Virus record (IMG/VR): IMGVR_UViG_2778261300_000006
Span: 1-19,140 of that record
Source: a virus
Lineage: Duplodnaviria > Heunggongvirae > Uroviricota > Caudoviricetes
DNA: 19,140 nucleotides
Direction: 5' to 3' (one strand)
Of the stretch, positions 1 through 14,585 are shown in pieces. How positions within the stretch are numbered: position 1 is the first letter of the stretch; each line of letters opens with the position of its first letter. Position numbers and translations under genes: made by a program. The notes below the pieces were generated by a model. That model had not been told where the DNA came from. It was given only the letters and a program-made list of their open reading frames with translations, and ran no database searches.

Positions 1-201
1 TTAGGTAACTTCTTTACCTATTGCAACCGATAGATCTCGCAAAATCCGATAAGTCAAACGACCGCGAGGTAGTTCACTTTTACCAGCCCAGCGACTGACT
101 GCCTGGGTGACTGTTCGTGGTTCATAGCCCGCGTTAAGCGCGAACTGGCGCAAGCTACTGCCTCGTTCAACCAGCCGTGCCCGAACTTGTTGTTTGTTCA
201 T
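1..201 (-). CDS. Ner/Cro-like small HTH DNA-binding regulator
   Basis: 66-aa ORF (ATG at 201; the track's 207 start is GTG). The segment SLRQFALNAGYEPRTVTQAVSRWAGKSE resembles the Mu Ner / Nlp family pattern (SLSALSRQFGYAPTTLANALERHWPKGE) from memory. It is divergent from the plus-strand regulator. The stop codon sits at the window edge (1..3). Confidence 0.55.
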   Translation of the reverse strand: MNKQQVRARLVERGSSLRQFALNAGYEPRTVTQAVSRWAGKSELPRGRLTYRILRDLSVAIGKEVT

Positions 202-289
202 ATGCACCGTGTTCCTGTTAGGTTATGATGTACTCTATTGGGTCTATTGTACACACCCAAATGAGTGTGTCAAATTGAGATATGTTCAA
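202..289. promoter_or_regulatory. Divergent intergenic control region between the Ner-like and XRE-like regulator genes
   Basis: 88-bp AT-rich spacer between two divergently oriented HTH genes. It contains a short inverted repeat, acacac-N9-gtgtgt (about 246..266). Promoters and operators are inferred from geometry only. Confidence 0.3.
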
Positions 290-697
290 ATGAGTACAAA
301 AGAGAGATTGCGTGAAGTGATGGATGCTAATGGCATGACAATAAAGGCATTATCTGACTTATCAAAAATTCCATATCGCTCACTTCAAAACTATTTGCGT
401 GGAGAGAGAGAACCAAACGCAGAGGCTCTTGTTGCGCTAAGTGCCCATTTGGGTGTATCGATCGATTGGCTACTTACCGGTAAAGAACATATTCCATCTA
501 AAGAAATTGTTGCTGTACCAACACAACATCAATTCAGCCCGTCAGACCTTAAAATGCTTGAACTTCTAAACCAGTTAGATCCTGAGGTTCGGCGAGATCT
601 CATGCGAGGCGCTGAAGAAAAACAGCGTGTGATTGAGATGGAAAAACAACTGAAGGAATTATCCGCAACGATTGAGCGGTTAAAAAATGTGGGTTAA
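290..697 (+). CDS. XRE-family HTH transcriptional regulator (repressor-like) with a C-terminal coiled-coil region
   Basis: ATG at 290 (MSTKERLREVMDANGMTIKALSDLSKIPYRSLQNYLRGEREP...) gives a classic XRE/Cro-CI-type helix-turn-helix. The C-terminus is charged and heptad-like (EEKQRVIEMEKQLKELSATIERLK). The track ORF starts at 194, but its N-terminal extension is unlikely to be translated. No S24 peptidase domain is present. Confidence 0.6.
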   Translation: MSTKERLREVMDANGMTIKALSDLSKIPYRSLQNYLRGEREPNAEALVALSAHLGVSIDWLLTGKEHIPSKEIVAVPTQHQFSPSDLKMLELLNQLDPEVRRDLMRGAEEKQRVIEMEKQLKELSATIERLKNVG

Positions 698-767
698 TGT
701 GTTCCTAACGAGAACATATAGCAGAAATTATTTGCCATTAAGCAATAAAAAATAAGGTGGATAGCCA

Positions 768-1775
768 ATGTCTGAGCAGACCATTGAAGTTAAACACGTT
801 GTAGTTCACATTTTAGACAAACAACAAAATGGAGACGCTTCTGAGAGATTGAGTCCTGAAGAAGGTCTAGTTACTGAAGCCTCTCAGCGCCTTATAAACG
901 ATATTTGTGCAAAATATGCAGGACGCACAGGTAAAGGTTATGGCTATTTTGAAGGCGATACGGATAACTATCCTATGGAACGAATGGCTGGGGACTTTCT
1001 CGAAGGTGTTGATGATTTCTACCAAAGTTCCTGCCGAATGATGCATCACCTGACGGAACGTTCTCAGCGAGAAAACATGGCTACTGGTGGTTATGTTCTT
1101 TTTGCAAATATCGTGATAGGACACAATGAACACCTGTTGATAGCTATTGTAAGCGCTACCATTGGGTCCACTGTCACAGATGATTTTAACATCCAAGATA
1201 GTACCTATCTTGATATTGCTAAGCTGCGTATGGCTGGGCGCATTGACTTAACCGCGTGGGAAAGTGGCGCAGAGCGCTATATCAGTTTTCTTAAGGGGCA
1301 AGGTAATGTTTCAAACTATTTTAAACAGTTCCTAGGCTGTAATGATGTCTTAATCGCCAAACGAGAGTCTGAAAAGTTACGTGACGTTTTAAAAGCATTT
1401 GCGGCAGAGAAAGGACTTGACGGCGCTGAAAAAGATGCATTTCTTAAGAGTGCGTTTGAACACTTACATGCACTAAGTAAGGCTGGTGAACCACTTAGTC
1501 TTGAAACCCTTGTTAATGCCATTTGGCCCCAGGCTCCCGAGGAGTTATCTGGTAAACTTGCTGCTGAAGAGTTGGAGTTATCGGATGGCTTCGTTCCTGA
1601 TGGTCGAGTCATTCGGGCTCTGGTATCTTTTAAAGGCAAGTCTAAATATTGGGAACTTAAGTTTGACCGGGAAGGGAAAACTGAAGGCTATATTGATTAT
1701 GATCCGGAAACAAATATTATCACCCTACGTAATGTACCTGAAGAATTTAGGGAAATGTGGATGACTGAGGTTTAA
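768..1775 (+). CDS. NdpA/YejK-like (nucleoid-associated-protein-like) soluble protein; cargo gene A
   Basis: ATG at 768 with RBS AAGGTGG 7 nt upstream. 335 aa. Recalled NdpA-family landmarks: N-terminal I-x-V-K-HVVVHILDK, KGYGYF, and GGYVLFANIV...HLLIAIV. AT-rich relative to the tail genes. This is a recall-based assignment, not a search result. Confidence 0.5.
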   Translation: MSEQTIEVKHVVVHILDKQQNGDASERLSPEEGLVTEASQRLINDICAKYAGRTGKGYGYFEGDTDNYPMERMAGDFLEGVDDFYQSSCRMMHHLTERSQRENMATGGYVLFANIVIGHNEHLLIAIVSATIGSTVTDDFNIQDSTYLDIAKLRMAGRIDLTAWESGAERYISFLKGQGNVSNYFKQFLGCNDVLIAKRESEKLRDVLKAFAAEKGLDGAEKDAFLKSAFEHLHALSKAGEPLSLETLVNAIWPQAPEELSGKLAAEELELSDGFVPDGRVIRALVSFKGKSKYWELKFDREGKTEGYIDYDPETNIITLRNVPEEFREMWMTEV

Positions 1776-1777
1776 TC

Positions 1778-2983
1778 GTGGCGATTTCATTTGAGATGCT
1801 GACAGCTCTGTATCGTCGTATGGAATTCCAAGAGGGGTTTCGTGTCGGTTCGCTGTTGCTCTTAGATCAGTCCGATTGTGATCTGGTTGATACTTTGCTT
1901 GATGATCCTCGTGAATATGGTCTTTCTATTGATACAGGCACTATCGCTCCAGGTAACACGATCATCCTACGTGTGACGTCACCACGGAGTGGACTGGGAC
2001 TTGTGTTTTCCACCCATGAAAAATTGCTAAATGCTCCAAAGCATCAGTGCCTTGAGCCAGCTAATTACTTCATCCTAGAAACAAAATTTCGTAATGATGA
2101 TGAAGATATCCCCGTTTTCATCAGCAACTACCGGAAGATTCTCGAGTTCGTTAACCTGCTAAAAGAGGCCGCGGCCTACTTTGATAACTCAACTTGTCAG
2201 TTAGTTTTTCTGAAAAAAGAAGTTATCAAGCTATTACCGCACTTCGCTGCAGAAAATGTACAAAATTTGCAAAGGGAGTATCTTGATAACCTTATAGCTT
2301 GTTTCAATGATGATACCCATAAGGATCAGAAGCTAGATATTCTGATTGAAAGTATTCAAGCAGTTAGTGATGGAATTGATTCACCTCTAGTATTCGCTTA
2401 TTTACTGGACAATATTCAGCGTCTGCATGAAAAGTTTCTGAAAGGGTATCGTATCTACTCTTCTGGATTCTCTTATGACAAAGTAATGGATCAACTGCGT
2501 GCTGCAAAAGTCGAAGAAATGGGTAAAATCCACAAAGCGTTTTCAGATATCCAGAACCATATACTTGGCATTCCTGTTGCCTCTGTTATCGTAGCTACCC
2601 AATTCAAAGTGGCTACGAAATGGTCAGGCCAAGGGATAACAAACACAATAATTCTTCTGGGATGCATTTTTGCTGCAACGTTAATCTGGCTGGCACTTTC
2701 GAACCAGATGCAATCTATAAAGGCCTTAGGCGAAGAAATTGAATACAAAGAAAAACAGATTAATAAGGAATATTCCTTCATTAAAGATGACGTGGCTGGT
2801 GTATTTAGCAGTATTTCTGCGCGACTAGACACGCAGAAACGTACGTTCTGGATTATACGTGGTGTTCTAGTTATGGGAATTATTACCGCTATCACTGTTT
2901 ATTTTTGGTACACAAAACCAGCCCTTGACTTCATGCAGTACTTGATTCACTGCATGAAGTCTTACTATTCGGTCAAAAGTTGA
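1778..2983 (+). CDS. Membrane protein with a large N-terminal soluble domain and two C-terminal TM helices; cargo gene B
   Basis: GTG at 1778 with GAGG 7 nt upstream, 2 nt after the stop of gene A (operon coupling). Hydrophobic segments ITNTIILLGCIFAATLIWLAL and TFWIIRGVLVMGIITAITVYFWY are separated by a charged helical linker. No recognisable enzymatic motif. Confidence 0.55.
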   Translation: MAISFEMLTALYRRMEFQEGFRVGSLLLLDQSDCDLVDTLLDDPREYGLSIDTGTIAPGNTIILRVTSPRSGLGLVFSTHEKLLNAPKHQCLEPANYFILETKFRNDDEDIPVFISNYRKILEFVNLLKEAAAYFDNSTCQLVFLKKEVIKLLPHFAAENVQNLQREYLDNLIACFNDDTHKDQKLDILIESIQAVSDGIDSPLVFAYLLDNIQRLHEKFLKGYRIYSSGFSYDKVMDQLRAAKVEEMGKIHKAFSDIQNHILGIPVASVIVATQFKVATKWSGQGITNTIILLGCIFAATLIWLALSNQMQSIKALGEEIEYKEKQINKEYSFIKDDVAGVFSSISARLDTQKRTFWIIRGVLVMGIITAITVYFWYTKPALDFMQYLIHCMKSYYSVKS

Positions 2984-3743
2984 GGATAATGAGTTCCTTC
3001 TTGCGACTGGATTTGCCAGTGATCTTGAGGTTGTAGCTGATATCAACCGACTGAATATTTAGACCGTTGAATGCCTGCCGCATTTCCGGGATATCGTTCA
3101 CCGATATAATCATCTTCCCTTTGATCCTGCGTGCTAAATCTGCCATATGATCATAATTTTCTAGTCCGAACTCCACACCATAACCTTCCGTTCCCCAGTA
3201 TGGAGGGTCACAGTAGAACAACGTATGCGGGCGATCATATCGTTCTATGCACTGTTGCCAGTCCATGTGTTCTATGACCGTTCTGGAAAGCCGCAGGTGT
3301 GCCGCTGACAGTTCTTCTTCAATACGCAGCAGGTTGAAGCGTGGCGGGGATATGGTGGAGGTACCAAAGCTGTGCTCCGCCACCTTGCCCCCAAACGCCT
3401 GCTTCTGAAGGTAATAGAACCGTGCTGCACGCTGGATATCCGTCAGTGTTTCTTCCGGGGTGATCTGCAGCCATTTGTAGATCTGCCGGCTGACCAGCGC
3501 CCATTTGAACTGGCGTACAAATTCTTCCAGATGATGTTTTACCACCCGATACAGGTTCACCAGCTCACCGTTGATATCATTAATGACTTCGATCTTGCCG
3601 GGTACCTTAAGAAAATAGAGCGCTGCTGCCCCACAAAACGGCTCCACATAACATTCATGCGCCGGAAACAGCGGCAGGATGTGTTTTGCAAGGCGGCGTT
3701 TGCCACCAATCCATGGAACGATGGGTAATGTCTGCATTTTCAT
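2973..3743 (-). CDS. dam: DNA adenine methyltransferase (Dam-like, D12-class N6-adenine MTase)
   Basis: 256 aa. N-terminal AdoMet-binding motif (EPFCGAAALYF), catalytic DPPY motif (FYCDPPYWG) and WIGGKRRL near the N-terminus. The 3' end overlaps the 3' end of cargo gene B by 11 bp (convergent). Confidence 0.85.
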   Translation of the reverse strand: MKMQTLPIVPWIGGKRRLAKHILPLFPAHECYVEPFCGAAALYFLKVPGKIEVINDINGELVNLYRVVKHHLEEFVRQFKWALVSRQIYKWLQITPEETLTDIQRAARFYYLQKQAFGGKVAEHSFGTSTISPPRFNLLRIEEELSAAHLRLSRTVIEHMDWQQCIERYDRPHTLFYCDPPYWGTEGYGVEFGLENYDHMADLARRIKGKMIISVNDIPEMRQAFNGLNIQSVDISYNLKITGKSSRKKELIILNF

Positions 3744-3990
3744 AATCTGTAAGCCTTTTACAATTATAAAAAATATGGCAGGCTAGTCTGGTCTCGCGAG
3801 ACTGACTGAACCTTGGTCGGCTCACAGCGCATTCCTGTGGGGCGATGGCCAGCCCGGTGTTCGGGTACCGGGCTGGTCGTTCTTTCAAAGCCATCATGCA
3901 GTGCACGTTTACATCTTCACTATTAACGCTGTTTAAAATCCGTATCCCGCCACATTTGTGATGCTGTCTCCACCAAACGAGGAGACACAC

Positions 3991-4341
3991 ATGAAAAACC
4001 TGAAAAAATTCATTCCCCCTGTTAAAAAACCTCGCCTCAGCGGCTGGCTGCTGACCTCAGTGCTGCTGCTGGGCACCATCGCTCTGGTCTCGCCACAGCA
4101 GTTGCCTGTTGTGATCTACAAGCTGGCACTCATCACGCTGGCAGCAGTGCTGGGTTACTGGCTTGACCGTTCGCTCTTCCCCAAAGCCCGTCCCGGTCAG
4201 TACCTGAAACATGACGACAGACTGATGGCTGAAGGGCGTTTCCCTGTGCAGACCGGCCTTCACCTTGTATTTTCTGCTGCGTTAATCCGCCGTGCACTGA
4301 TTGTTGCAGCGGTCTGTCTGGCTGTGGCAACAGGACTGTGA
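3991..4341 (+). CDS. Holin-like small membrane protein (2-3 predicted TM segments)
   Basis: ATG at 3991 with RBS GAGGAG at 3979..3984. 116 aa with hydrophobic stretches WLLTSVLLLGTIALV, VVIYKLALITLAAVLGYWL and ALIRRALIVAAVCLAVATGL. Stop overlaps the start region of the downstream lysis gene. Confidence 0.5.
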   Translation: MKNLKKFIPPVKKPRLSGWLLTSVLLLGTIALVSPQQLPVVIYKLALITLAAVLGYWLDRSLFPKARPGQYLKHDDRLMAEGRFPVQTGLHLVFSAALIRRALIVAAVCLAVATGL

Positions 4342-4343
4342 CC

Positions 4344-4886
4344 ATGAACTGGCCTCAAATCACCCTCATTATTCTGTTCGCCTTTGGTCTGGGCGTAACC
4401 GCCATCAGGCACGGAGAACCACGTAACGATAAATACAGCTTCTGGTGGCAGCTTGCTGGCAACCTGGTGATTGTCTGGCTGCTCTGGTGTGGCGGCTTCT
4501 TCAGTCAGGCCCGCGCAGCGCAGCCTCCGCAGGCTGCGCTGCAGTATCGCGATGATGTGATCCGTAATGCCCGGCTTGAATGGGGACTGTCTGCGCCGGT
4601 GGCCGATTTCGCCGCGCAACTGCATCAGGAAAGCGGCTGGCGACCTGATGCGGTCTCGCCGGCTGGCGCTCAGGGACTGGCGCAGTTCATGCCTGCCACT
4701 GCCGACTGGATAAGCCAGTTGATACCGATGCTGAGCAGTCGTGAGCCGTTTAATCCTGCATGGGCTATCCGGGCGCTGGTCAGCTATGACCGCTGGCTGT
4801 GGCAGCGCGTAAGCGCCGCCAACGACTGCGAGCGTATGGCCATGACACTGTCGGGCTATAACGGTGGTCTACACCCTGCGCCGTAA
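4344..4886 (+). CDS. Signal-anchored lytic transglycosylase (endolysin-like, SLT domain), apparently truncated or frameshifted
   Basis: N-terminal hydrophobic segment (WPQITLIILFAFGLGVTAI) followed by the family-1 SLT signature ...HQESGWRPDAVSPAGAQGLAQFMPATADWI... and YNGG. The ORF stops right after the YNGG motif; see the 4891..5016 feature. Confidence 0.6.
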   Translation: MNWPQITLIILFAFGLGVTAIRHGEPRNDKYSFWWQLAGNLVIVWLLWCGGFFSQARAAQPPQAALQYRDDVIRNARLEWGLSAPVADFAAQLHQESGWRPDAVSPAGAQGLAQFMPATADWISQLIPMLSSREPFNPAWAIRALVSYDRWLWQRVSAANDCERMAMTLSGYNGGLHPAP

Positions 4887-4890
4887 GGGG

Positions 4891-5016
4891 ATGCCTGTTG
4901 CCGACAAGTACGACGGAGCCGGCGGCAAGGTGAAGTACTGCCGTTATACCGATATCTACAAAGTCGCCGTGGTTGGTGGCGATGCCGGGTATCTCATTAC
5001 CGGTATCAGTAAATAA
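4891..5016 (+). pseudogene. +1-frame continuation of the transglycosylase gene (frameshifted 3' portion or separate 41-aa ORF)
   Basis: The +1 frame reads ...YTLRRKGMPVADKYDGAGGKVKYCRYTDIYKVAVVGGDAGYLITGISK and ends at 5016, exactly where the RBS (AAGGAGG) of the next gene begins. The frame switch would lie near the ggtggt run around 4862..4870. Confidence 0.4.
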
Positions 5017-5025
5017 GGAGGCGTT

Positions 5026-5364
5026 ATGGGAACCACTCAGCAGGTCATTCTGATCACAACCGTAACGGCAGGGGCCGCACTGGCACAGCAGCGTTTTGTC
5101 GGGGCAGATAATACCCCCTGTAAAGCCGGTGCCGCAGCGCTCGGGGTTGCCGAAGTGGATGCTGTTACCGGCGACAGCACGCCGGTGAGCGTTCTGGGCA
5201 TTATTGCTGTCGAGGCCGGGGCCGCTGTCAGCCGTGGTGTGGCTGTTCAGTCAGATGCTCAGGCCAGAGCCGTGCCGCAGTCCGGCGACGGTAAATCCTG
5301 TGGTATTGCACTTGATGAAGCCGGGGGTGAAGGCGACGTCATTCGTATCCTGCGCGGGGTGTGA
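5026..5364 (+). CDS. Ala/Gly-rich small structural protein (possibly Mu gp35-like, DUF2190-type)
   Basis: ATG at 5026 with perfect RBS AAGGAGG. 112 aa. Its position immediately upstream of a DUF1320-like gene matches Mu late-operon order. The family call is from memory and weak. Confidence 0.45.
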   Translation: MGTTQQVILITTVTAGAALAQQRFVGADNTPCKAGAAALGVAEVDAVTGDSTPVSVLGIIAVEAGAAVSRGVAVQSDAQARAVPQSGDGKSCGIALDEAGGEGDVIRILRGV

Positions 5365-5365
5365 C

Positions 5366-5812
5366 ATGTACTGCACCCTGGAGGATTTGCTTGCGCAGGT
5401 GCCGGAACGAACGCTGATCGAGCTCACCAGTGAAGAGATGGACTTCGACTCGCCTGCAACAGTGAATACCCGTGTGGTGGACAGCTGTATCCGCTATGCC
5501 GACGAGCTGATTGATGCCCATCTGCGCGGACGCTATATCCTGCCACTGGCAGAGATACCGACTGTTCTGCGGGACATTGCCATCACGCTGGTCCGTTACC
5601 GGCTCTACGCCCGCCGCCCGGAAGGTGACCTCCCGGATACGGTGAAGGATGACCACAAAGAAGCGCTGCGGCAACTCAGGGAGTTACGTGATAACAGGCT
5701 CACGCTGGGGCTGCCGTCCACTCAGAAAGATGTGCCTGAGCCTGGCGAGTTTCGTGTACGCAGCCGCCCGGCCACTTTCGGCGGTCGTGACGGTTTACTG
5801 GAGAAATACTGA
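5366..5812 (+). CDS. Mu gp36-like protein (DUF1320 family; head-tail joining or tail completion)
   Basis: MYCTLEDLL...RYILPLAEIPTVLRDIAITLVRYRLYARRP...HKEALRQLRELRDNRLTLGL matches the recalled DUF1320 pattern (RY.LPL...P.VL..A.D.A.YRLY.RR...YK.A...L..I..G...LG). Start is 2 nt after the upstream stop. Confidence 0.65.
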   Translation: MYCTLEDLLAQVPERTLIELTSEEMDFDSPATVNTRVVDSCIRYADELIDAHLRGRYILPLAEIPTVLRDIAITLVRYRLYARRPEGDLPDTVKDDHKEALRQLRELRDNRLTLGLPSTQKDVPEPGEFRVRSRPATFGGRDGLLEKY

Positions 5813-6276
5813 TGAACGTTCTGCCCGTCCTTGATGCGGTACTGGCCCGGTTACGCGAGAAGCTGCCGCAACTGCAGGTGGAGTACTTCCCGGAGAAACC
5901 GGCTGAATATCGCCTGAACCATCCGGTTGGCGCGTTGCTGCTGAGCTATGCCGGTTCGCGCTTTGACAGGCCGGATGATACCGGTGCGGTGATCCAGTCT
6001 CAGACTATCCAGCTCTGCGTCACGGTGGTCTTCCGCCAGCTCAACGGTAAAAAAGGGGCGATTAATGTCCTGGATGCTGTCCGCCGCATTCTCGGCGGCC
6101 ACACCCCGCCCGGCTGCCGCCGCCGTATCTGGCTGACCCGCGAGGTGTTTATCGGTGAAGTCAGGGGGCTGTGGCAATACGCCCTCGACTTCGCGACTGA
6201 AAGCGTCTTTATCGAAGACAGCGATTTACCGTCCGGCCCGCTGTTAACCGAAGTGAACTATGAGGAAAGCGAGTGA
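5812..6276 (+). CDS. Mu gp37-like virion morphogenesis / tail completion protein (tentative)
   Basis: ATG overlaps the upstream stop (TGATG) and GGAG lies 8 nt upstream. 154 aa. Assignment is by position between the gp36-like gene and the sheath gene in Mu-like order. Confidence 0.45.
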   Translation: MNVLPVLDAVLARLREKLPQLQVEYFPEKPAEYRLNHPVGALLLSYAGSRFDRPDDTGAVIQSQTIQLCVTVVFRQLNGKKGAINVLDAVRRILGGHTPPGCRRRIWLTREVFIGEVRGLWQYALDFATESVFIEDSDLPSGPLLTEVNYEESE

Positions 6277-6527
6277 TGAAAGAATACCGCTATTCCGGCC
6301 CGGCCAGCGGCGTCACGCTGTCGGACGGAACCGAAATCCTGCTCTGGCCGGGGAAGACGGTTTCCCTGCCGGAGGAGCATGAATACGTGAAGGTACTGGT
6401 GGCGCTGAAGCATCTGACGCCGGTACCAGAAGATACTAAACCCGCCGTCACACCGGCTGTGCAGTCACCAAAGCGCAGAAGCAGCAGTGACAGCGAAGTG
6501 AAAACGGAGGACTCCCATGGCAGCTAA
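6276..6527 (+). CDS. Small protein with a disordered, charged C-terminus (Mu gp38-like position)
   Basis: ATG at 6276 overlaps the upstream TGA. 83 aa. The 3' end overlaps the sheath gene start by 11 nt. Confidence 0.4.
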   Translation: MKEYRYSGPASGVTLSDGTEILLWPGKTVSLPEEHEYVKVLVALKHLTPVPEDTKPAVTPAVQSPKRRSSSDSEVKTEDSHGS

Positions 6528-7944
6528 CTATCTGCATGGCGTCGAAACCATTGAGGTGGAAAACGGAGCCCGCCCGGTTAAAACGGTGAAATCTGCCGTT
6601 ATTGGCCTGATTGGTACCGCCCCGATGGGGGATGTCAATACGCTGGTACAGTGCCTGTCTGAGAAAGACGCTGCGGCATTTGGCAGCCAGTTCACCGGCT
6701 TTACCATTCCGCAGGCGCTGGATGCGATTTATGACCATGGTGCAGGCACCGTTCTGGTCATTAACGTACTCGATCCGTCTGTGCATAAAACCGCTGTGGT
6801 CAGTGAGAATGTGTCGTTCGACAAGGCGACAGGCAGAGCCCGGCTGGCTAATCCGGTGGTCGCGCAGCTGGTACTGAAACCGGACAGCGACGGTCAGCCT
6901 TATGTTGAAGGTCAGGACTACTCGCTTGATGCACAGACCGGGGTGATTACTAACCTGGGTAAAAGCATTGCTGCAGATGCAACGGTGAAGGCCAGCTATA
7001 ACTATGCTGATCCGACCAAAGTCACCCCGGCTGATATCATCGGTACCGTTAACGCTGCAGGCAACCGTACCGGCATGAAGCTGCTTAACGACAGTTTTAA
7101 CCTGTTTGGCTACTTCGCCAAAATCCTGATTGCTCCGGTATTCTGCACCCAGAACAGCGTCTCGGTTGAGCTTATCGCCATGGCTGAGAAACTGGGAGCA
7201 GTAACCTATATTGATGCGCCGGTTGGTACCACTTTTGCGCAGGCTCTGGCGGGACGTGGCCCGGAAGGCACCATTAACTTTAATACCAGCTCTGACCGTG
7301 TCCGCCTGTGCTACCCGCATGTGAAGGTATATGACCCGGTGACGAACACGGAGCGTCTGGAGCCACTGAGCCAGCGTGCGGCGGGCCTGCGTGCCAAAGT
7401 CGACCTGGACAAAGGGTACTGGTGGTCATCCTCCAATCAGGAAATTCTGGGGATCACCGGCGTGGAGCGCCAGCTGTCGGCAATGATTGACGATCCGCAG
7501 AGCGAGGTGAACCTGCTTAACGAACAGGGGATCACCACGGTATTCAGCAGTTACGGCAGCGGCCTTCGTCTGTGGGGTAACCGGACGGCAGCATGGCCAA
7601 CGGTCACCCATATGCGTAACTTTGAGAACGTTCGCCGCACCGGTGATGTGATCAACGAGTCCATTCGTTACTTCAGCCAGCAGTACATCGACATGCCGAT
7701 TACTCAGGCGCTGATTGATGCACTGACGGAGTCGGTCAACGCCTACGGTCGCAAAATGACTGGTGATGGTGCGGTACTGGGCTTCCGTTGCTGGTTTGAT
7801 CCGGCCCGCAATCCGGAGACGGAGCTGGCCGCCGGGCACCTGTTGCTGAGCTACAAATATACGCCACCACCGCCGCTGGAGCGACTGACGTTTGAGACTG
7901 AAATCACCTCGGAATACCTGTTAACCCTGAAAGGGGGCAACTGA
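6517..7944 (+). CDS. Contractile tail sheath protein
   Basis: 475 aa with RBS GGAGG 6 nt upstream. Size and position are right for a myovirus sheath, and it is followed immediately by a tube-sized gene. Sequence is reminiscent of Mu L / P2 FI-type sheath proteins. Confidence 0.85.
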   Translation: MAANYLHGVETIEVENGARPVKTVKSAVIGLIGTAPMGDVNTLVQCLSEKDAAAFGSQFTGFTIPQALDAIYDHGAGTVLVINVLDPSVHKTAVVSENVSFDKATGRARLANPVVAQLVLKPDSDGQPYVEGQDYSLDAQTGVITNLGKSIAADATVKASYNYADPTKVTPADIIGTVNAAGNRTGMKLLNDSFNLFGYFAKILIAPVFCTQNSVSVELIAMAEKLGAVTYIDAPVGTTFAQALAGRGPEGTINFNTSSDRVRLCYPHVKVYDPVTNTERLEPLSQRAAGLRAKVDLDKGYWWSSSNQEILGITGVERQLSAMIDDPQSEVNLLNEQGITTVFSSYGSGLRLWGNRTAAWPTVTHMRNFENVRRTGDVINESIRYFSQQYIDMPITQALIDALTESVNAYGRKMTGDGAVLGFRCWFDPARNPETELAAGHLLLSYKYTPPPPLERLTFETEITSEYLLTLKGGN

Positions 7945-8465
7945 TGTCAAAGATTGAGATAAACCGAATCACGAATGCCAACATCTATCTGGATGGTACT
8001 AACCTGCTGGGACGGGCTGAGGAAGTTAAACTCCCCGATGTCTCCATGATTATGCAGGAGCACAAGGCACTGGGGATGGTGGGTAAGGTGGAACTCCCGG
8101 CTGGTTTTGACAAACTGGAAGGCGAAATCAAATGGAACAGCTTTTACCGCGATGCGATGTTGTCTGCCGCGAACCCGTACAAGTCGCTGGCGCTGCAGTG
8201 TCGCTCCAGCGTCCAGCGCTACAGCTCGCAGGGGCTGATCGACGAAATCCCGCTGGTCACCTTCCTGACAATTATGTTCAAGAAGAACCCGCTGGGGACG
8301 TTCAAACAGCACGAGAACGCCGAGTTCTCCAGTAGCTTCACCTGCACGTATATCAGACAGGTACTGGATGGTGAAGAGTTGCTGCAACTGGACTATCTGG
8401 CCAACATCTTCCGCGTCGGTGGCGTTGATCAACTGACTGACTATCGAATCAATATCGGGGGCTGA
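7944..8465 (+). CDS. Tail tube protein
   Basis: 173 aa. ATG overlaps the sheath stop (TGATG) and RBS AAGGGGG lies upstream. Canonical position after the sheath. Confidence 0.8.
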   Translation: MSKIEINRITNANIYLDGTNLLGRAEEVKLPDVSMIMQEHKALGMVGKVELPAGFDKLEGEIKWNSFYRDAMLSAANPYKSLALQCRSSVQRYSSQGLIDEIPLVTFLTIMFKKNPLGTFKQHENAEFSSSFTCTYIRQVLDGEELLQLDYLANIFRVGGVDQLTDYRINIGG

Positions 8466-8467
8466 CG

Positions 8468-8749
8468 GTGAGTGTTGAACTGACTGACAAAGGAGGGCGA
8501 TGTGCGTCACTGGGCATGTCAAATGGTACGTGGTTTACCCTCCTTGATATTCCGGGGGTGGAGACCCTCTTTAATACCCGTAAAACCAATGACCCGATTG
8601 ACTGCACACGTTCAAAGGCCCGCAAACTGGCCGATTTGATTGAAGCATGGGAGCCGCCCGACCAGTGGTTCTCCGGCACCGGCAACTCTGAGGGAAAGGC
8701 GCTTCTCATCGCTTTCCTGCGTAACTGCAAGGGTTTTCGCACTTGCTGA
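8468..8749 (+). CDS. Hypothetical small protein between tube and chaperone genes
   Basis: 93-aa ORF with GTG start at 8468 (alternative in-frame ATG at 8516). No recognisable family. Followed directly by a terminator-like hairpin. Confidence 0.3.
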   Translation: MSVELTDKGGRCASLGMSNGTWFTLLDIPGVETLFNTRKTNDPIDCTRSKARKLADLIEAWEPPDQWFSGTGNSEGKALLIAFLRNCKGFRTC

Positions 8750-8756
8750 CATCACA

Positions 8757-8778
8757 GGGGCTCCGGCCCCTTCTTTTT
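8757..8778 (+). terminator. Rho-independent terminator-like hairpin inside the tail operon
   Basis: GGGGC-tccg-GCCCC stem-loop (8757..8770) followed by TTCTTTTT (8771..8778). Confidence 0.45.
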
Positions 8779-8846
8779 AATCCCCTTTAATATCCGTCAC
8801 GTCCACCGCCAGACATACTGCTCTGAATTTACAAAGGAGTATGATC

Positions 8847-9182
8847 ATGTCACAGACCCAGTCCGATACTTTTACGCTGTCTTATCCTTTCACCACTGCT
8901 GCAGGTACCAGAATTGAACAGATTGAACTGAAACGCCTGACAGTAAAAGACCTGAAGCAGGTGCGCAAAATCAACAAAGACCCGACAGACTGGGACGAAC
9001 CACTGATTGCCCGTAGCACCGGTATCCTCCCGGAAGACCTCGATAACATGGATCTTGCCGACTATATGGAGCTGCAGAAACGATTTCAGAAAATCACTGG
9101 GCTGGGCAAGAGCGACAAAAACACTGATGCAGGTGCAGGGCCTGCTGGCGAGATGGTTCAGGTTTCAACCGGGGGAGATTGA
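8847..9182 (+). CDS. Tail assembly chaperone (P2 gpE / lambda gpG-type), upstream frame
   Basis: ATG at 8847 with AAGGAG 7 nt upstream (the 8841 ATG is too close to the RBS). Small acidic protein directly upstream of the tape measure gene, with an overlapping out-of-frame ORF, the hallmark of the conserved chaperone frameshift pair. Confidence 0.65.
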   Translation: MSQTQSDTFTLSYPFTTAAGTRIEQIELKRLTVKDLKQVRKINKDPTDWDEPLIARSTGILPEDLDNMDLADYMELQKRFQKITGLGKSDKNTDAGAGPAGEMVQVSTGGD

Positions 9183-9264
9183 TGCCCTCGATACTGACGA
9201 TCTGGAGATGTGGCTGGAGCAGGCTGAAGAGCAAATCAAAAGCGAGTTCGGCGACAATCAGTAA
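9007..9264 (+). CDS. Frameshift extension of the tail assembly chaperone (E'-like C-terminal extension)
   Basis: ORF in the +1 frame relative to 8847..9182, overlapping its 3' end. It encodes an acidic helical tail (...IDALDTDDLEMWLEQAEEQIKSEFGDNQ). It has no plausible independent start (TTG in the track). Only the 3' part (roughly 9170..9264) would be translated after the shift. Confidence 0.45.
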   Translation: MPVAPVSSRKTSITWILPTIWSCRNDFRKSLGWARATKTLMQVQGLLARWFRFQPGEIDALDTDDLEMWLEQAEEQIKSEFGDNQ

Positions 9265-9357
9265 CAACGTATCACTTAACAGCCGCCAGTCGCGGCTGTT
9301 CTGCATGGGTTTCAGACACTTCCCTTCCGTTTTTTTTGCTTTCAGAGGATAGCCACC

Positions 9358-11823
9358 GTGGCCAGTGAATTTTCAGTCGGCGTCATTATTGGCGGCATTG
9401 TCGGGAGCAGCTTCCGCTCAGCCGTCAGTGGCACCCGACGCGCCCTTGATTCCCTTGGTGATACCTCCCGCCGTCTGCAGGAACGCCAGAATGCCTTAAC
9501 CCGGGCAACAGAACGTTATGGTCAACTGGGTTCTTCCCGGATGCAGCATCTCAACAGCGAGTTGCTGCGGGTAAGCCGCACCATGGAGCAAATTGAACGT
9601 CAGCAGCGCCGTCTGTCAGCAGTATCAGCCACCGGTGATGCGTTGAAGGCTAACCGCCTGGCGCTCTATGGTCAGGGTGCAGAAACCTATGCTATTGGCA
9701 GAACGCTGGGCGCACCGGTCATGGCCTCGGTTAAACAATATGCCTCGTTTGAATCACAGTTGCGGGATATCAGTGTCACAGGAGACCTGGATGCAAAACA
9801 GGAACGTGCAATTGGCCAGGCTATCAGACAGGCCTCGCTGAAGGTTAACCAACTGCAGGAGTCTCTGTTAGGGGGAGTCGGACAATTAGTTGCTGATGGT
9901 ATGGCCCCCGAACGGGCAGCAACGTTTGCAGAGATGCTTGGAAAGACCGCTACAGCAACCAAAGCCGATATGACCGACCTTGCCAAAATGACTTATGCCT
10001 TCAGCGATGCACTCAGAATCACTGATGCGAAAGAACTTGAACAGGCGTTTGGTATTGCGGCAACAGGAGCCAAACTTGGGTCATTTGAGCTGAAGGATAT
10101 GGCAAAAGCATTACCCGGTATGGCTAAAGCCTTCGCTGCTCGTGGTATTTATGGAAAAGATGCGATTACCCAGATTGTTGCCAGTCTGGAGGTCGGTAAA
10201 GGTAGTGGCTCTGCAGAGGAAGCGGTCACCAATATGTCCAACTGGCTGGCAGCAATGGGCCGCGGAGATACCATCCAGAAATATGCTAAAGCCGGGGTGG
10301 ATTACCAGGGGTCAATGCAGAATTACGTCGCTCAGGGTTTTTCGCAGTACGAAGCTTCACTGATGATTGCCAACCGTTTTATCGACAGTAAAGGCAAAGC
10401 GTTCTTGCAGCAATGGAAAGCTGCAGGAGCAAGAGGCGATCAGGAAGGTCAGCAGAAACTCATGGAGTCATTTGGTCTGGCTGAGGTCTTTACCGATATT
10501 CAGACTGTCAACCATTTACTGTCAATGCGACAGGGCTGGGATAAATACCTTTCCAGTAAGCAGGAAATGAATACTCCGGCTGCAATGTCTACCCTGGATA
10601 AGGATGCTGCAAAGCAGAATGATACGCTTGAAGGTCGCTGGCGCAGAATGCAGATCGGCTTTAATGATTCTGCTATCAGCATCGGGCAATCCTTGCGTCC
10701 GGCTTTGCTCCAGTTGGGTGAAACATTTATTCCTTTAATGGACAGTGTTGGCAAATGGATAGCGGCAAATCCGCAGCTCGTCAGCAGCACCATAAAGGTT
10801 GTGGGCGCATTACTCGCTTTCAGGATGGCCACTATCGGTCTCAAGCTTGGGCTGAATCTCCTTCTTTCCCCCTTTGTAAGCGTCTGGAAAAATGCTGTTT
10901 TACTTCGGGCCAACTGGCTTCGTCTGACGCTCGCACTGGGGGAAGGCGGTAAACTCCGCTGGCTGGTGACAGGCTTTGGTGCTGTCGCCAGAGGAGCCAG
11001 AACACTGGGTGGTGTGCTCTCAGGGGGGCTGGTTCGCGGAATTATGAGCGCCGGGCGTGCCGTTCTCTGGATTGGCCGGGCGCTGCTGATGAATCCCATC
11101 GGTCTCGTTATCACCGCCGTCGCGGCAGCAGCTTACCTTATCTACCGCAACTGGGGCGCAGTCAGTAGCTGGTTTAAACAGCGCTGGGCTGACATTCAGG
11201 AAGCCTTTAACGGCGGCATCGTGGGAATTGGTAAACTGCTGGTTAACTGGTCTCCGGCTGGTCTGCTTTATAAAGCCTTTGCGGCTGCGCTGAAATATCT
11301 CGGCGTTGATCTGCCGGCGAAATTCACCGACTTCGGTGGTCATCTTATTGACGGGTTGATAAATGGCATCAGAAACAAATGGGCGTCACTCAAAACCAGC
11401 GTAACCGGAATGGGTGACAGCATCAGTGACTGGTTCAGCGAAAAGCTGGGCATCCATTCACCGAGTCGCGTGTTTATGGGCTTTGGTGACAATATCGCGC
11501 AGGGTGCCGCCATTGGCCTGCAACGGACCACTCCGCTTGCTGCACTGGCCGGGCAGCGCCTGGCCGCTGAAATGACACCGGATGTTCCCCGTATCCCGTC
11601 GCCGGAAATCATGGCTGCCGGATATTCAGGCCGTGGCGCAACTGCAACCGGCGGTGGAGCGTCTGGCGGTATCCAGGTCAGCTTTAATCCTCAGTTTTTC
11701 CTCAATGGTAAGGAAACCGCAGCGCCTGCCGGGCTGGCTGGTGCCCTGAATATGAGCCTGCATGAGCTGGAAAAAATGCTGGAGCGTCTGCTGGCTCAGA
11801 AACAACGTAAGGAGTACAGCTGA
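9358..11823 (+). CDS. Tail tape measure protein
   Basis: 821 aa. GTG start with AGAGGA 8 nt upstream. Long helical N-terminal region, Gly/Ala-rich hydrophobic central segments and overall architecture typical of tape measure proteins. Confidence 0.85.
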   Translation: MASEFSVGVIIGGIVGSSFRSAVSGTRRALDSLGDTSRRLQERQNALTRATERYGQLGSSRMQHLNSELLRVSRTMEQIERQQRRLSAVSATGDALKANRLALYGQGAETYAIGRTLGAPVMASVKQYASFESQLRDISVTGDLDAKQERAIGQAIRQASLKVNQLQESLLGGVGQLVADGMAPERAATFAEMLGKTATATKADMTDLAKMTYAFSDALRITDAKELEQAFGIAATGAKLGSFELKDMAKALPGMAKAFAARGIYGKDAITQIVASLEVGKGSGSAEEAVTNMSNWLAAMGRGDTIQKYAKAGVDYQGSMQNYVAQGFSQYEASLMIANRFIDSKGKAFLQQWKAAGARGDQEGQQKLMESFGLAEVFTDIQTVNHLLSMRQGWDKYLSSKQEMNTPAAMSTLDKDAAKQNDTLEGRWRRMQIGFNDSAISIGQSLRPALLQLGETFIPLMDSVGKWIAANPQLVSSTIKVVGALLAFRMATIGLKLGLNLLLSPFVSVWKNAVLLRANWLRLTLALGEGGKLRWLVTGFGAVARGARTLGGVLSGGLVRGIMSAGRAVLWIGRALLMNPIGLVITAVAAAAYLIYRNWGAVSSWFKQRWADIQEAFNGGIVGIGKLLVNWSPAGLLYKAFAAALKYLGVDLPAKFTDFGGHLIDGLINGIRNKWASLKTSVTGMGDSISDWFSEKLGIHSPSRVFMGFGDNIAQGAAIGLQRTTPLAALAGQRLAAEMTPDVPRIPSPEIMAAGYSGRGATATGGGASGGIQVSFNPQFFLNGKETAAPAGLAGALNMSLHELEKMLERLLAQKQRKEYS

Positions 11824-12707
11824 TGTTTGCCGTACTGGGTGATATTGAGTTTGAACTGATTACCTACTGGGACGGCTTCGAGGCCACGTTTGGCGTCGAT
11901 TATGCGGAGCATGCCCGCATCGAGGGTAAACCCGGCCTGCAGTTTGTCGGCGACAGGCTGGACGAAATCCAGATAAGCCTGGTCTTCCATCAGCATTATT
12001 GTGTGCCCGACGTGGAGCTGGCGAGAGTGCGAACAGCCATGAAGGCCCATCAGGCACTGGCGCTGGTCTTCGGCAACGGTGACTATCGCGGCTGGTTCGT
12101 GATTACCGATGTGACCGCAACCAGCGAGCAGACAGACAGCACCGGTAACGTGCTGGCTGTCAGTGCCACCGTGTCTCTCCGGGAATACACCGGTGACCCG
12201 AAAAATCCTCTGCAACCGCCGGCAATACGCAGGCAGGTTCCCGGTGCCGGAGCTGTATCGGGTGCTGTTCCATCGCCTTCCGGGGTGGCGCAGTTCGTCC
12301 GTAACGGCGTCAACTATGCGAAACAGGCGCAGTCTGTACTCCAGACCACTATCAGTGCCGTTCGGGTGGCGCAGAAAATGAAGGGTAACCCCGTTGTCGC
12401 GCTGACCCGTGTGCCTGGACTGATGAGCGGACTGGGTAATATATCCGGAGCTCTGGGGAAAAGTGTTCCGGCGTTTAATGCACTCTCTGAATCCATGCCC
12501 GATGCCATCAGTCTGGCCAGAACAGCCAGTGAGGCAGCCACGTATGTACAGCAGGCGCAGTCGGCGCTGAGTGGTGTGGACAAAAGAAATATTGCAGGTG
12601 CTCTGGATACCGTTTCCGGGCAGCTTAACGCCGCCGGCACAGCATTCAACCGCATGTCTCCGGGATTAAGTGCAATGGCCGCCAGAATACTGACGAGGAG
12701 TGTGTGA
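11823..12707 (+). CDS. P2 gpU-like tail protein (DNA-circulation-type N-terminal domain)
   Basis: ATG overlaps the tape-measure stop, with AAGGAG 8 nt upstream. N-terminus MFAVLGDIEFELI resembles gpU-family starts. Position is after the tape measure. Confidence 0.55.
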   Translation: MFAVLGDIEFELITYWDGFEATFGVDYAEHARIEGKPGLQFVGDRLDEIQISLVFHQHYCVPDVELARVRTAMKAHQALALVFGNGDYRGWFVITDVTATSEQTDSTGNVLAVSATVSLREYTGDPKNPLQPPAIRRQVPGAGAVSGAVPSPSGVAQFVRNGVNYAKQAQSVLQTTISAVRVAQKMKGNPVVALTRVPGLMSGLGNISGALGKSVPAFNALSESMPDAISLARTASEAATYVQQAQSALSGVDKRNIAGALDTVSGQLNAAGTAFNRMSPGLSAMAARILTRSV

Positions 12708-12919
12708 TGTTTCTTGAACATATTACCCGTGACGGAGAGCGCTGGGATTCGCTGGCATGGCAGTACTACGGTGACCCGCTGGGCTATCCCCGGATTATTG
12801 CAGCCAATCCGCACGTGGCCATTACGCCGGTGCTGCCCTCCGGGGTGTTGTTACTGATCCCGGTTATTGAGGCTGAAGATGCCCGCACAGAAGAGGATGT
12901 TGCTCCATGGCTGAGATAA
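12707..12919 (+). CDS. Tail protein X-like (P2 gpX family)
   Basis: 70 aa. ATG overlaps the upstream stop, with GAGGAG 6 nt upstream. Pattern W..LAWQYYGDPLGY..IIAANP......LP.G..L.IP resembles the gpX / LysM-like family. Confidence 0.6.
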   Translation: MFLEHITRDGERWDSLAWQYYGDPLGYPRIIAANPHVAITPVLPSGVLLLIPVIEAEDARTEEDVAPWLR

Positions 12920-14061
12920 ACAGTACTGCGCAAGACGTATCAGCGTTAACCGGCGTCAGCGATGTGCTGACGCCGGTGTTCACTCTGTGGTATCTGCAGA
13001 AAAATATCACCTCTGATATCGCGCCTTATGTCACCCGTGTGACCTGGAGCGATAACATCAAAAATGAGTCCGATACCATTGAGGTGGAGCTGGATGACAC
13101 CGATGGTCGCTGGCTGGATAAGTGGTATCCGGGCAAGGGTGACACGCTGACGCTGAAAATGGGTTATCAGGGCGAGAAACTGCTGTCCTGCGGTACATTC
13201 TCAATAGACGAGATCGAAGTGAGTTCGCCCGCGTCCGTTGTCGCTATCCGTGGGGTGGCCACCTCGGTTAACAGTGCTCTGCGGACTAAATCCAGCCGTG
13301 GTTTTGAGAACACCACGCTGGCAGCTGTTGCGGGGCGGATTGCCAGAAAGCACCGACTGAAACTGGTGGGCAGCATTGAGTCCATCAAAATCGACCGGGT
13401 GACCCAGTATGCTGAAACCGACGTGGGTTTTCTGCGCCGGCTGGCCAGCGAGTATGGTTATGCAGTGAAAGTGGTCAGTGACCAGTTGATTTTTTCTCAT
13501 CTGGCCACACTGCGCAGTCAGGAGCCGGTCAGGCAGTTAAAACCGCAGGATGTGGCCCGCTTTTCCCTGCGTGACACCATCAACCGGGTCTATAAATCTG
13601 CAAAGGTAAAACACCAGAAAAGCAGCAGTAAAAAACTGATCGTCTACGAAGCTGATGGTGGTACCCGTGAAAGCGACAAAAAGCTCAAAGGTGGTAAGGT
13701 TACCAGCGCTGACTCACTTAAAGTTAACAGCCGTGTCAGCGACCCGGACAGTGCCCGGATTAAAGCGGATTCAGCACTGGCCAGACATAACGAATACCAG
13801 CAGAACGGCTCCCTGACGCTGACGGGAACGCCTCAACTGACAGCAGGCAACAAAATTGAACTGGTGGGCTTTGGACAGTTATCCGGTCCATGGCTGATAA
13901 TCACTGCCCGCCATGCGTTTGAGCGTAACAGCGGCTACACCACAGAGCTGGAAGTGGCACGGGGGCCAGTCACAAGAGGGAAAAAACAAAAAACTCAGAA
14001 ACTCACGGTTTATCACCCGGATGGCAGTACATCGACGGTGATTAAGGAGAAGAAAAAATGA
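12907..14061 (+). CDS. P2 gpD-like / Mu P-like tail protein (baseplate hub-type)
   Basis: 384 aa. Position between the gpX-like and spike genes. Lys-rich C-terminus. 3' end overlaps the next start (ATGA). Confidence 0.65.
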   Translation: MAEINSTAQDVSALTGVSDVLTPVFTLWYLQKNITSDIAPYVTRVTWSDNIKNESDTIEVELDDTDGRWLDKWYPGKGDTLTLKMGYQGEKLLSCGTFSIDEIEVSSPASVVAIRGVATSVNSALRTKSSRGFENTTLAAVAGRIARKHRLKLVGSIESIKIDRVTQYAETDVGFLRRLASEYGYAVKVVSDQLIFSHLATLRSQEPVRQLKPQDVARFSLRDTINRVYKSAKVKHQKSSSKKLIVYEADGGTRESDKKLKGGKVTSADSLKVNSRVSDPDSARIKADSALARHNEYQQNGSLTLTGTPQLTAGNKIELVGFGQLSGPWLIITARHAFERNSGYTTELEVARGPVTRGKKQKTQKLTVYHPDGSTSTVIKEKKK

Positions 14062-14585
14062 CTGGTGTCACCCGTCAGGTCGGTACGGTCAGTGCCGTTG
14101 ATGCCGACAGGGTTCAGGCCCGCGTTCGTCTGCCTGAATGCGATAATCTGCGCACAAACTGGCTTAACGTGCTACAGCGCAATACCCAGGATAACAAGGA
14201 TTACTGGCTCCCTGACGTGGGGGAGCAGGTTGAGGTGCTGCTCGATGCCAACGGCGAGGATGGTGTTATTCTGGGCGCGGTGTACTCAGACGTCGATAAA
14301 CCGCCGTTCAGTGATAAAAACGTCCGGGGTACGAAATACGCTGATGGCGCGGAGTTCAGTTATAACCGCGCGACCCATACGCTGACGGTCAGAGGAGGTA
14401 TTGAGCGTATCGTGGTGGAGGTTGCCGCTGATATCTCTCTCAAAGGGAAAAAACTCGACCTCACGGGAGTTACCACGATCAACGGCCCCGCGACACTCAA
14501 TGGTGATCTGGAAATCAACGGAAGCGCCCATGCAACGGGTAACATATTTGCTGATGGTCAGAACTCTAATCACCATTCCCATTGA
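14058..14585 (+). CDS. Baseplate central spike protein (gpV-like)
   Basis: 175 aa with AAGGAG RBS. gpV-like N-terminal OB-fold region. His-rich C-terminal apex (...GQNSNHHSH). Confidence 0.75.
   Translation: MTGVTRQVGTVSAVDADRVQARVRLPECDNLRTNWLNVLQRNTQDNKDYWLPDVGEQVEVLLDANGEDGVILGAVYSDVDKPPFSDKNVRGTKYADGAEFSYNRATHTLTVRGGIERIVVEVAADISLKGKKLDLTGVTTINGPATLNGDLEINGSAHATGNIFADGQNSNHHSH

Follow-up and report, generated by a model that had tools for sequence, protein, structure and literature searches.

What does a DNA methyltransferase gene without a restriction partner do in a transposable prophage, which sequence does its product recognize, and how is it controlled? We examined these questions for the gene at positions 2973-3743 (minus strand) of a 19,140-nucleotide (nt) stretch of viral DNA (IMG/VR record IMGVR_UViG_2778261300_000006, positions 1 to 19,140), which is called the window here and is part of a BcepMu-like transposable prophage of Escherichia coli. 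A preliminary description of the window had taken the gene for an orphan Dam-type methylase that overlaps a convergent cargo operon. In the reading that we prefer, with a probability of roughly 0.6, the gene encodes an intact orphan D12 methylase of BcepMu-like prophages, which would be off in the lysogen, made in the lytic cycle and directed against restriction, would recognize a target other than GATC, and would be gated after transcription.

2973..3743, minus strand: D12 DNA methyltransferase of the M.EcoMIV / phage B3 ORF48 family, 256 amino acids (aa), assigned by Pfam, alignment and model
residues ~60-150 of the methylase: target-recognition region, with its hairpin at F117-F136

The open reading frame (ORF) starts with ATG, encodes 256 aa and ends with the TGA at 2973-2975 on the minus strand. 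In a Pfam search, residues 11-234 matched positions 1-248 of the 253 positions of PF02086 (MethyltransfD12) with 98.4 bits (E 7.3e-28, cutoff 22). The TIGR00571 'Dam family' model gave 116.9 bits, barely over its cutoff of 114.85, and the PADLOC type II methyltransferase model PDLC03253 gave an E-value of 3.7e-115. The catalytic motif IV, D179PPY182, was present as described before and is invariant in a family alignment of 65 sequences. The S-adenosylmethionine (AdoMet) motif I had been described as FxGxG, whereas it reads F36-C-G38-A-A40, that is, FxGxA; the family consensus also has Ala at the last position. The order of the elements (motif I, then the target-recognition region with its hairpin, then motif IV) is that of the alpha class. 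An AlphaFold2 model built from 65 homologues had a predicted local distance difference test value (pLDDT) of 93 and a predicted template-modeling (TM) score (pTM) of 0.90. The best matches of this model in the Protein Data Bank (PDB), as found by Foldseek, were EcoDam (TM 0.79-0.81), DpnM, M.CbeI (0.80) and T4Dam (~0.70), and the sequence identity to GATC-specific alpha-class enzymes is 23-25%. According to the model, the methylase is a protein with a Dam-like fold and a member of the D12/alpha class. The Pfam score, the motifs and the modeled fold thus bear out the earlier statement that the gene encodes a complete D12-class methyltransferase, and the protein looks catalytically active. The pairwise ratio of nonsynonymous to synonymous substitutions (dN/dS) against relatives is 0.03-0.14. 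Thus, the methylase is maintained by purifying selection, though it is silent in lysogens.

The prophage context was obtained from the prophage of E. coli strain MS20655, which adjoins torS. Window positions 4-4870 and 4869-15585 each correspond to a separate part of this prophage, at 99.8-99.96% identity. In the orientation of the window, the early operon of MS20655 lies on the minus strand and encodes a Ner-like helix-turn-helix (HTH) protein, a DDE transposase, an ExeA/B-like ATPase, Gam, gp16 and Mor. The plus strand carries the repressor, an NA37/YejK-like protein and a 401-aa membrane protein; then follows the methylase gene on the minus strand, and beyond it, again on the plus strand, the holin, SLT lysin, spanin, terminase, portal, head and tail genes. 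The two operons that flank the methylase gene in the window are the following.

290..2983, plus strand: convergent lysogeny-side operon with the HTH repressor at 290-697 (MS20655 annotation), the NA37/YejK-like protein at 768-1775 and the membrane protein at 1778-2983
3958..4341, plus strand: holin gene, the first of the lysis/late operon, divergent from the methylase gene

The divergent methylase-holin pair is kept in 26 fetched loci. The gene does not lie in a type II restriction-modification (R-M) arrangement, as its neighbors encode the membrane protein and the holin. No nuclease was found among the sizeable ORFs of the window, all of which are assigned to the repressor, the NA37-like protein, the membrane protein, the holin, the SLT lysin or head-tail, tail, baseplate and fiber proteins. 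Neither is a nuclease partner annotated in the complete MS20655 prophage. Thus, the term orphan is justified for this element, and the absence of a cognate endonuclease, claimed earlier for the window, extends to the full prophage.

These results bear on the idea that the methylase is the modification half of a restriction or defense system, together with the neighboring cargo or with a gene outside the window. The cargo pair does match the DS1_1/DS1_2 and KwaA models weakly, and the 11-base-pair (bp) overlap with the cargo is kept in Mixta and probably in Brenneria. However, the methylase occurs without the cargo in EC958, JJ2434, KP12, PhiKM and most other loci, a nuclease domain is missing from both cargo proteins, no endonuclease is annotated in the prophage, and the genes are transcribed convergently and not as an operon. 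The cargo next to the methylase changes between phages while the methylase stays. Since the cargo is absent from most methylase loci, the pairing was rejected, and we find it hardly credible. The repressor-cargo operon is the context of the methylase gene, not its partner.

A search of 5426 complete E. coli genomes found the methylase gene in 535, where it belongs to BcepMu-like transposable prophages, and proteins more than 90% identical occur in Klebsiella, Enterobacter, Salmonella, Citrobacter, Pantoea and others. Thus, about one in ten complete E. coli genomes, including the pandemic sequence type 131 (ST131), and many Klebsiella, Salmonella and Enterobacter genomes carry it. B3 ORF48 is 66% identical over its full length, and VP882 gp37 and phiE125 gp27 are 64-65% identical. 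The BcepMu-like prophage of EC958 (ST131) encodes a D12 methylase that is 88% identical (WP_000783854.1): residues 1-182, including the recognition region, are nearly the same as in the window methylase, and the C-terminal third is a divergent allele. Because WP_000783854.1 is the sole D12 methylase of that prophage, we infer that it is M.EcoMIV (EC958_1101); this identification is our own and was not taken from REBASE. M.EcoMIV was described as an orphan of the Phi2 prophage with a PF02086 domain, which was transcribed significantly below dam in mid-log LB culture, to which no motif could be assigned by sequencing of single molecules in real time (SMRT), and which had no homologue above 65% identity with a known site (Forde et al. 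2015, PMC4659465). In addition, the methylome of a Salmonella strain with a BcepMu-like prophage shows chromosomal motifs only.

Judged by its sequence, the methylase is an already catalogued, ordinary member of the M.EcoMIV / B3 ORF48 family. M.EcoMIV shares with it the BcepMu-like prophage type, the slot between the immunity region and the holin gene, and the state of a D12 orphan, but EC958 has no cargo between repressor and methylase and no gene overlap. The phage that carries B3 ORF48 is likewise Mu-like and transposable, whereas ORF48 lies inside the late (tail) operon with a Com gene overlapping its start, where the window has a non-coding structured leader.

The low transcription of M.EcoMIV is informative for a further alternative, an epigenetic regulator of lysogenic conversion or of the phage life cycle. 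Such an enzyme would be expressed in the lysogen, perhaps conditionally, and would methylate host or prophage promoters, which would adjust host traits or the choice between lysis and lysogeny. The position of the methylase gene, which adjoins the immunity region and is convergent with the repressor operon, would fit this role, and a regulatory role has been proposed for the methylases of VP882-related telomere phages such as VHML. However, M.EcoMIV is transcribed far below dam and left no motif in the EC958 lysogen methylome. Moreover, the Com linkage and the end-of-late-operon positions of the homologues, which are described below, point to late, gated expression. We therefore think this role unlikely and prefer the reading in which the methylase would be kept essentially off in the lysogen.

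The target was examined by comparison with EcoDam. EcoDam residues K9, N120, L122, R124, P134 and Y138, whose part in reading GATC is known from the EcoDam and T4Dam co-crystal structures, align with P10, G118, K120, A122, S132 and F136 of the methylase (phmmer, MAFFT). Furthermore, EcoDam and DpnM share the hairpin signature [YF]NGLxRxN...FNVP[FY]GRY, and the methylase has F117-GGKVAEHSFGTSTISPPRF-136 at this place. The GATC-Dam signature was carried by none of the 150 closest 50%-cluster representatives, nor by the methylase itself. With the NCBIfam Dam equivalog NF008152 the methylase scored 69.2 bits, far from the cutoff of 441, and does not belong to this equivalog. Its own hairpin, FGG[KR][VIL]xGQ[ST][FY]GT[AS]T, is fairly conserved at identities of at least 59% (B3, VP882, phiE125, MuM16-1 and the enterobacterial copies), and the recognition hairpin is variable across the wider family. 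Since the recognition hairpin differs from that of GATC-specific Dam, the methylase target is probably other than plain GATC. In addition, GATC is the most depleted 4-bp palindrome, with observed/expected ratios of 0.60 (window) and 0.53 (full prophage; L001 8990-41501, MS20655) under a maximal-order Markov expectation. This depletion is a weak, circumstantial hint that the phage may not rely on GATC methylation of its own. Seven GATC sites lie at 3021-3591, all inside the methylase gene.

A GATC-specific Dam isozyme could supplement host Dam during phage replication (MutH avoidance, control of packaging or transposition), or could serve hosts without Dam. The TIGR00571 score just over the cutoff and the rank of EcoDam as the top structural match agree with this idea. 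An extra motif is missing from the EC958 and Salmonella lysogen methylomes, which would also be expected of a GATC enzyme. Nevertheless, all six EcoDam residues are replaced, the NGLxRxN signature occurs in 0 of the 150 nearest representatives, the NF008152 score is 69 against 441, the prophage avoids GATC, and an N4-methylcytosine (m4C) enzyme for GGCC, M.CbeI, is equally close. Moreover, Campylobacter jejuni methylomes are without GATC methylation, including that of a strain with a 98.9%-identical copy of CJE0220, the C. jejuni homologue that is 34% identical to the methylase. A Dam isozyme is therefore rather unlikely. The designation 'Dam-type' holds for fold and class but probably not for a GATC reader, and annotation labels such as 'Dam' or 'DNA adenine methylase' should not be taken as GATC-specific.

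M.CbeI (PDB 7M6B) is an alpha-class N4-cytosine methylase for GGCC with a DPPY motif. It is as close to the methylase as Dam is in sequence (E 6e-15) and in fold, has the same F-[SG]-G-x-V hairpin start, and is similar in the C-terminal segment. As M.CbeI is as close as Dam, the target base of the methylase is also not proven by sequence, and methylation of cytosine N4 in place of adenine N6 was considered. However, characterized D12 members are mostly N6-methyladenine enzymes, and cytosine methylation is distinctly improbable. Woods et al. (2002) reportedly found N6-methyladenine in lysogens of phiE125, whose gp27 is 65% identical to the methylase; this would speak for an adenine enzyme and would also suit a regulatory role in the lysogen. 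No recognition site is given for phiE125 gp27, VP882 gp37, B3 ORF48, VHML or CJE0220 in the reviews searched.

In phage Mu, Com is the translational activator that gates mom. We scanned the 80 best loci, with one genome per species, for Com upstream of the methylase homologues. In 17 of the 80 species loci, whose methylases are 66-76% identical, a Com ORF ends at or overlaps the methylase start. Five of these ORFs were tested, and all matched PF10122 (41-57 bits). Similarly, ORF47 of phage B3 (L003 3846-4031) is a Com zinc-ribbon protein (PF10122, 77.7 bits), and its end overlaps the ORF48 start. The Com-bearing loci are listed here.

~3700-4050 of each locus: L029, L038, L044, L047, L048, L050, L053, L056, L061
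~3700-4050 of each locus, continued: L062, L066, L071, L077, L081, L083, L084, L088

Thus, com and the methylase gene form a recurrent module that mirrors com-mom of Mu. In the enterobacterial relatives' loci no Com was found, and no Com-like ORF (CxxC...CxxC) lies upstream of the methylase gene in the window, so the window locus is not of the com-mom type. A 64-aa zinc-ribbon early protein was tried as Com and rejected, since it is not Com by Pfam. Among the small zinc-ribbon proteins of the prophage, this one (L001 12079-12273, minus strand, outside the window; two CxxC pairs, phrog_3401) alone qualifies as a candidate trans-acting factor of the leader described below.

The homologues are spread over many temperate phages, and their positions were also compared. 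In the Mu-like siphoviruses MuM16-1, phiSHP3 and TJ1, the homologue occupies the place of mom, at the very right end of the genome. In VP882 it follows tail gene D, and in phiE125 the spanin gene. Unlike mom, the window methylase gene lies away from the genome's right end. Directly downstream of the VP882 homologue is gp38 (L006 4275-4628), a member of the Acb2/Tad1 family (PF24729, 65.6 bits). This family is a class of anti-CBASS/anti-Thoeris sponges, and the VP882 methylase thus sits in a counter-defense neighborhood. In the distant relatives P0123, P0135, P0144, P0177 and P0236, two to four D12 domains stand in tandem within giant polyproteins of 1056-2505 aa. Of these five, three also contain a fused prohead protease domain of the phage XkdF type, and some have DNA ligase, intein or metallo-beta-lactamase domains; these polyproteins may be capsid-targeted multi-methylases.

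In concept, the likeness to Mu com-mom lies in a DNA-modifying enzyme of a transposable phage that has no replication role and is gated post-transcriptionally. Mom itself is non-homologous: it has an acyltransferase fold and makes N6-carbamoylmethyl-adenine, whereas the methylase would carry out AdoMet-dependent methylation. Another enzyme family is known from the mom slot of Mu-like prophages. Hia5/Hin1523 belong to a very divergent Dam-like family, methylate adenine nearly nonspecifically, shield DNA against a wide set of restriction enzymes and stay silent in lysogens (Drozdz et al. 2012, PMC3299994). The same authors state that B3 ORF48 is not among the 1000 sequences closest to Hia5 (PMC3299994). 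Hia5/Hin1523/Nme1821 of FluMu-type prophages thus resemble the methylase in being Dam-related, in the mom niche and in their silence in lysogens, but appear to form a separate, far more divergent family, as judged from that statement on B3 ORF48. From the genomic context, the methylase family looks like a third, independent occupant of the niche of gated, self-protective DNA modification in transposable and other temperate phages.

For the enterobacterial copies, which have no Com, the region upstream of the methylase gene was aligned in 23 related loci from ten genera. A leader is common to Escherichia, Klebsiella phage KP12, Mixta, Erwinia, Photorhabdus, Xenorhabdus, Serratia, Symbiopectobacterium, Brenneria and Citrobacter. 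In the methylase sense, 5' to 3', it consists of H1, CACAG-N7-CTGTG, the extended hairpin H3, a T-run and the ribosome-binding region. An Rfam search of 2850-4050 gave no credible match.

3744..3885, minus strand: conserved candidate structured 5' leader, ~140-150 nt, from the alignment of 23 loci
3849..3876, strand ambiguous: H1, a hairpin rich in GC whose arms measure 10 bp (-32.1 kcal/mol, z -4.9 on the plus strand)
3823..3839, minus strand: CACAG-N7-CTGTG, an invariant inverted repeat whose loop varies
3791..3802: core of H3, GTCTCGCGAGAC, a perfect palindrome of 12 bp that occurs once in the prophage
3747..3759, minus strand: ribosome-binding region AAAAGGCUUACAG (sense), with predicted pairing to CUGUGAGCC (3819-3827) and the upstream U-run

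The ribosome-binding region AAAAGGCTTAC is invariant across the aligned loci. RNAalifold predicted two pairings, one of CUGUGAGYC with GGCUUACRG and one between the U-run and the A-run, by which the Shine-Dalgarno (SD) sequence is buried; in the window the predicted helix is CUGUGAGCC:GGCUUACAG. In this anti-SD helix, 97% of the alignment cells were paired on the sense strand (50 as G.U), compared with 75% on the antisense strand. The outer stem of H3 was paired in 96.5% of cells on the sense strand and 81.7% on the antisense strand. The pairing of the leader structure was 96.3% against 92.3% in column shuffles (0/500), and its covariation score was 0.231 against 0.162 in shuffles (0/500), although related sequences inflate both of these statistics; slid controls of the structure gave 32-48%. 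The window leader folded as a single sequence had -50.5 kcal/mol (z -4.05), with the start codon buried too. These results suggest a candidate translation-inhibiting element: the leader appears to sequester the ribosome-binding site (RBS).

The other elements of the leader are less uniform in what they indicate. The 3' arm of CACAG-N7-CTGTG is also the 5' strand of the long-range helix with the ribosome-binding region, and the CACAG:CUGUG hairpin is a possible alternative, anti-sequestering conformer. The H3 core is flanked by AGGYU/AGCCU closing pairs. Its place is taken by the palindromes GTCATCGATGAC in Xenorhabdus and GTTCTCGAGAAC in Symbiopectobacterium, and by a looped hairpin in Photorhabdus. 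As the 12-bp palindrome is unique in the prophage, it was dropped as a shared site of a late-promoter activator. H1 shows compensatory changes between genera (CCAGCC/GGCTGG, CTTGTC/GACAAG and CCTGCC/GGTAGG), with four pairs changed on both sides. In the strand test, which compares G.U with C.A cells, H1 was paired in 93.7% of cells in sense and 90.3% in antisense, so that its strand is undecided. On the plus strand a conserved TCGYTCTT directly follows H1, which gives H1 the appearance of a terminator for transcripts that run antisense through the methylase gene towards the holin gene. A cis-antisense small RNA from a promoter-like sequence at 3737-3764 (plus strand) to H1 was also considered; its -10 element is unconserved in the other genera, and it was kept as a possibility only. 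No convincing sigma-70-like promoter was found for the methylase gene, and the TATAAT at 3763-3768, unconserved in relatives, was dropped as its promoter.

Based on these results, we propose that the methylase gene is a conserved accessory gene of the BcepMu-like transposable prophages of Enterobacterales, with no restriction partner. The enzyme would be made during lytic development and would methylate progeny DNA before packaging, which would let this DNA survive restriction in the next host. In this role it would be a functional analogue of Mu Mom and of FluMu-type Hia5/Hin1523. Its control would act after transcription initiation, by a Com gene in many relatives and by an RBS-sequestering leader in the enterobacterial phages. 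Among the roles proposed in the preliminary description, an anti-restriction role appears the most plausible, and the parallel with Mu that the Com linkage provides strengthens it. Overall, the D12 class, the phage-borne and orphan state and the anti-restriction role were retained from that description, whereas the GATC 'Dam-type' and the overlap as a conserved design were not.

Several points weigh against this proposal. The reading of a non-GATC target is built on missing contact residues, and a differently built hairpin could still read GATC. In the literature searched, activity, specificity and expression timing are measured for no close relative, nor for the methylase itself. With no promoter found and TATAAT unconserved, the leader is only putatively transcribed. 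The changes in the anti-SD helix are one-sided and only wobble-compatible, and the H3 palindromes, instead of forming an RNA helix, could serve as operators for a dimeric regulator that co-evolves with them. Furthermore, the window prophage is without head genes, so that the methylase may serve no phage here.

A stronger form of the proposal can be put forward only tentatively, and we would sooner expect it to fail than to hold: an undescribed cis-regulatory RNA leader would replace Com and be opened by a phage factor, and the gated product would be a mom-like, potentially toxic enzyme with a new non-GATC, possibly relaxed specificity. If the methylase is of broad specificity and lytic, it would help to explain how BcepMu-like phages cross restriction barriers between genera. 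It would then be a third independent solution in Mu-like phages beside Mom and Hia5. Moreover, the alternative of Com or leader upstream of one enzyme family would offer a compact system for the gating of a dangerous DNA-modifying enzyme.

The convergent overlap, which had been thought to offer scope for interference with the cargo operon, was analyzed in the related loci. Two features lie at the 3' end of the methylase gene.

2973..2983: 11-bp tail-to-tail overlap between the methylase TGA at 2973-2975 (minus strand) and the membrane-protein TGA at 2981-2983 (plus strand)
2927..2961: perfect inverted repeat of 13 bp around a loop of 9 nt, starting 11 nt beyond the methylase stop, in the last 19 codons of the convergent gene

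The methylase gene is on the strand opposite to the cargo gene 1778..2983, and the overlap of the two stops by exactly 11 bp is as described before. The coordinates imply an 11-bp overlap in Mixta tenebrionis (L011) and probably in Brenneria (L027), with the same cargo cassette. In EC958 and JJ2434, the repressor gene faces the methylase gene across 116 bp, with no overlap; the EC958 spacer has a hairpin and then a T-run on the repressor-sense strand, which is terminator-like for the repressor transcript. There is no overlap in KP12 either, which has a 47-bp spacer with a hairpin after the methylase gene. The homology with KP12 starts at window position 3007, in the 3' end of the methylase gene. 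Thus, the junction of the cargo cassette falls within the methylase gene. As far as these loci indicate, the overlap is a local consequence of one cargo insertion and not a conserved regulatory design of the methylase.

The 2927-2961 hairpin is the only one in the overlap zone of the window. Its folding energy is -20.2 kcal/mol (z -3.3) on the plus and -25 kcal/mol (z -4.9) on the minus strand, the U-tract is weak on both, and the hairpin is a candidate terminator or RNA-end hairpin of the methylase transcript. No terminator-like site was found on the plus strand between 2983 and 3743. Antisense read-through of the lysogenic operon across the methylase gene is therefore plausible here. Such read-through could add to the silencing in the lysogen, and H1 could stop the transcripts before the holin gene.

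The cargo cassette consists of the NA37/YejK-like nucleoid-associated protein (Pfam 272 bits, phrog_3767) and the 401-aa membrane protein (phrog_5023). On the NCBIfam 'DS1' antiphage components DS1_1 and DS1_2, the pair scored below the cutoffs (63.7 vs 330 and 75.9 vs 315), and the membrane protein (1778-2983) matches KwaA of the Kiwa system in PADLOC at 8e-5. The cargo is probably a Kiwa-like prophage defense system that would be expressed with the repressor. The cassette occurs at the same place in M. tenebrionis (L011) and Brenneria (L027), and in 19 of the 5426 complete E. coli genomes. Between H1 and the holin promoter (3887-3924) lies a second variable spot, which is empty in the window. 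Elsewhere (including L002 24035-25007 and L010 10272-11597) it holds a DUF2441 gene (KP12) or three small uncharacterized genes (EC958, JJ2434 and PhiKM).

At the junction 4869-4870, the window prophage is without ~8.5 kb of MS20655 (L001 22272-30784), a stretch that begins in the 3' part of the SLT lysin gene and takes in the spanin, terminase, portal, head morphogenesis, protease/scaffold and major capsid genes. What is left of the lysin ORF (4338-4886) continues directly into the region before a DUF2190 gene (5026-5364). This junction was found in none of the 5426 complete E. coli genomes. Thus, either the deletion is private to this prophage, which would then be head-less and defective, or the junction is an artefact of assembly or extraction.

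At the right end of the window, a collar-domain tail-fiber gene (16657-17622) is followed by a second collar-domain ORF (17633-18109), and the opposite strand carries a tail-fiber assembly gene (18116-18733) and one more ORF (18733-19131). The arrangement of 16657-19131 and the DNA invertase that KP12 has at the corresponding end suggest an invertible segment for host range, of the kind found in Mu and P1.

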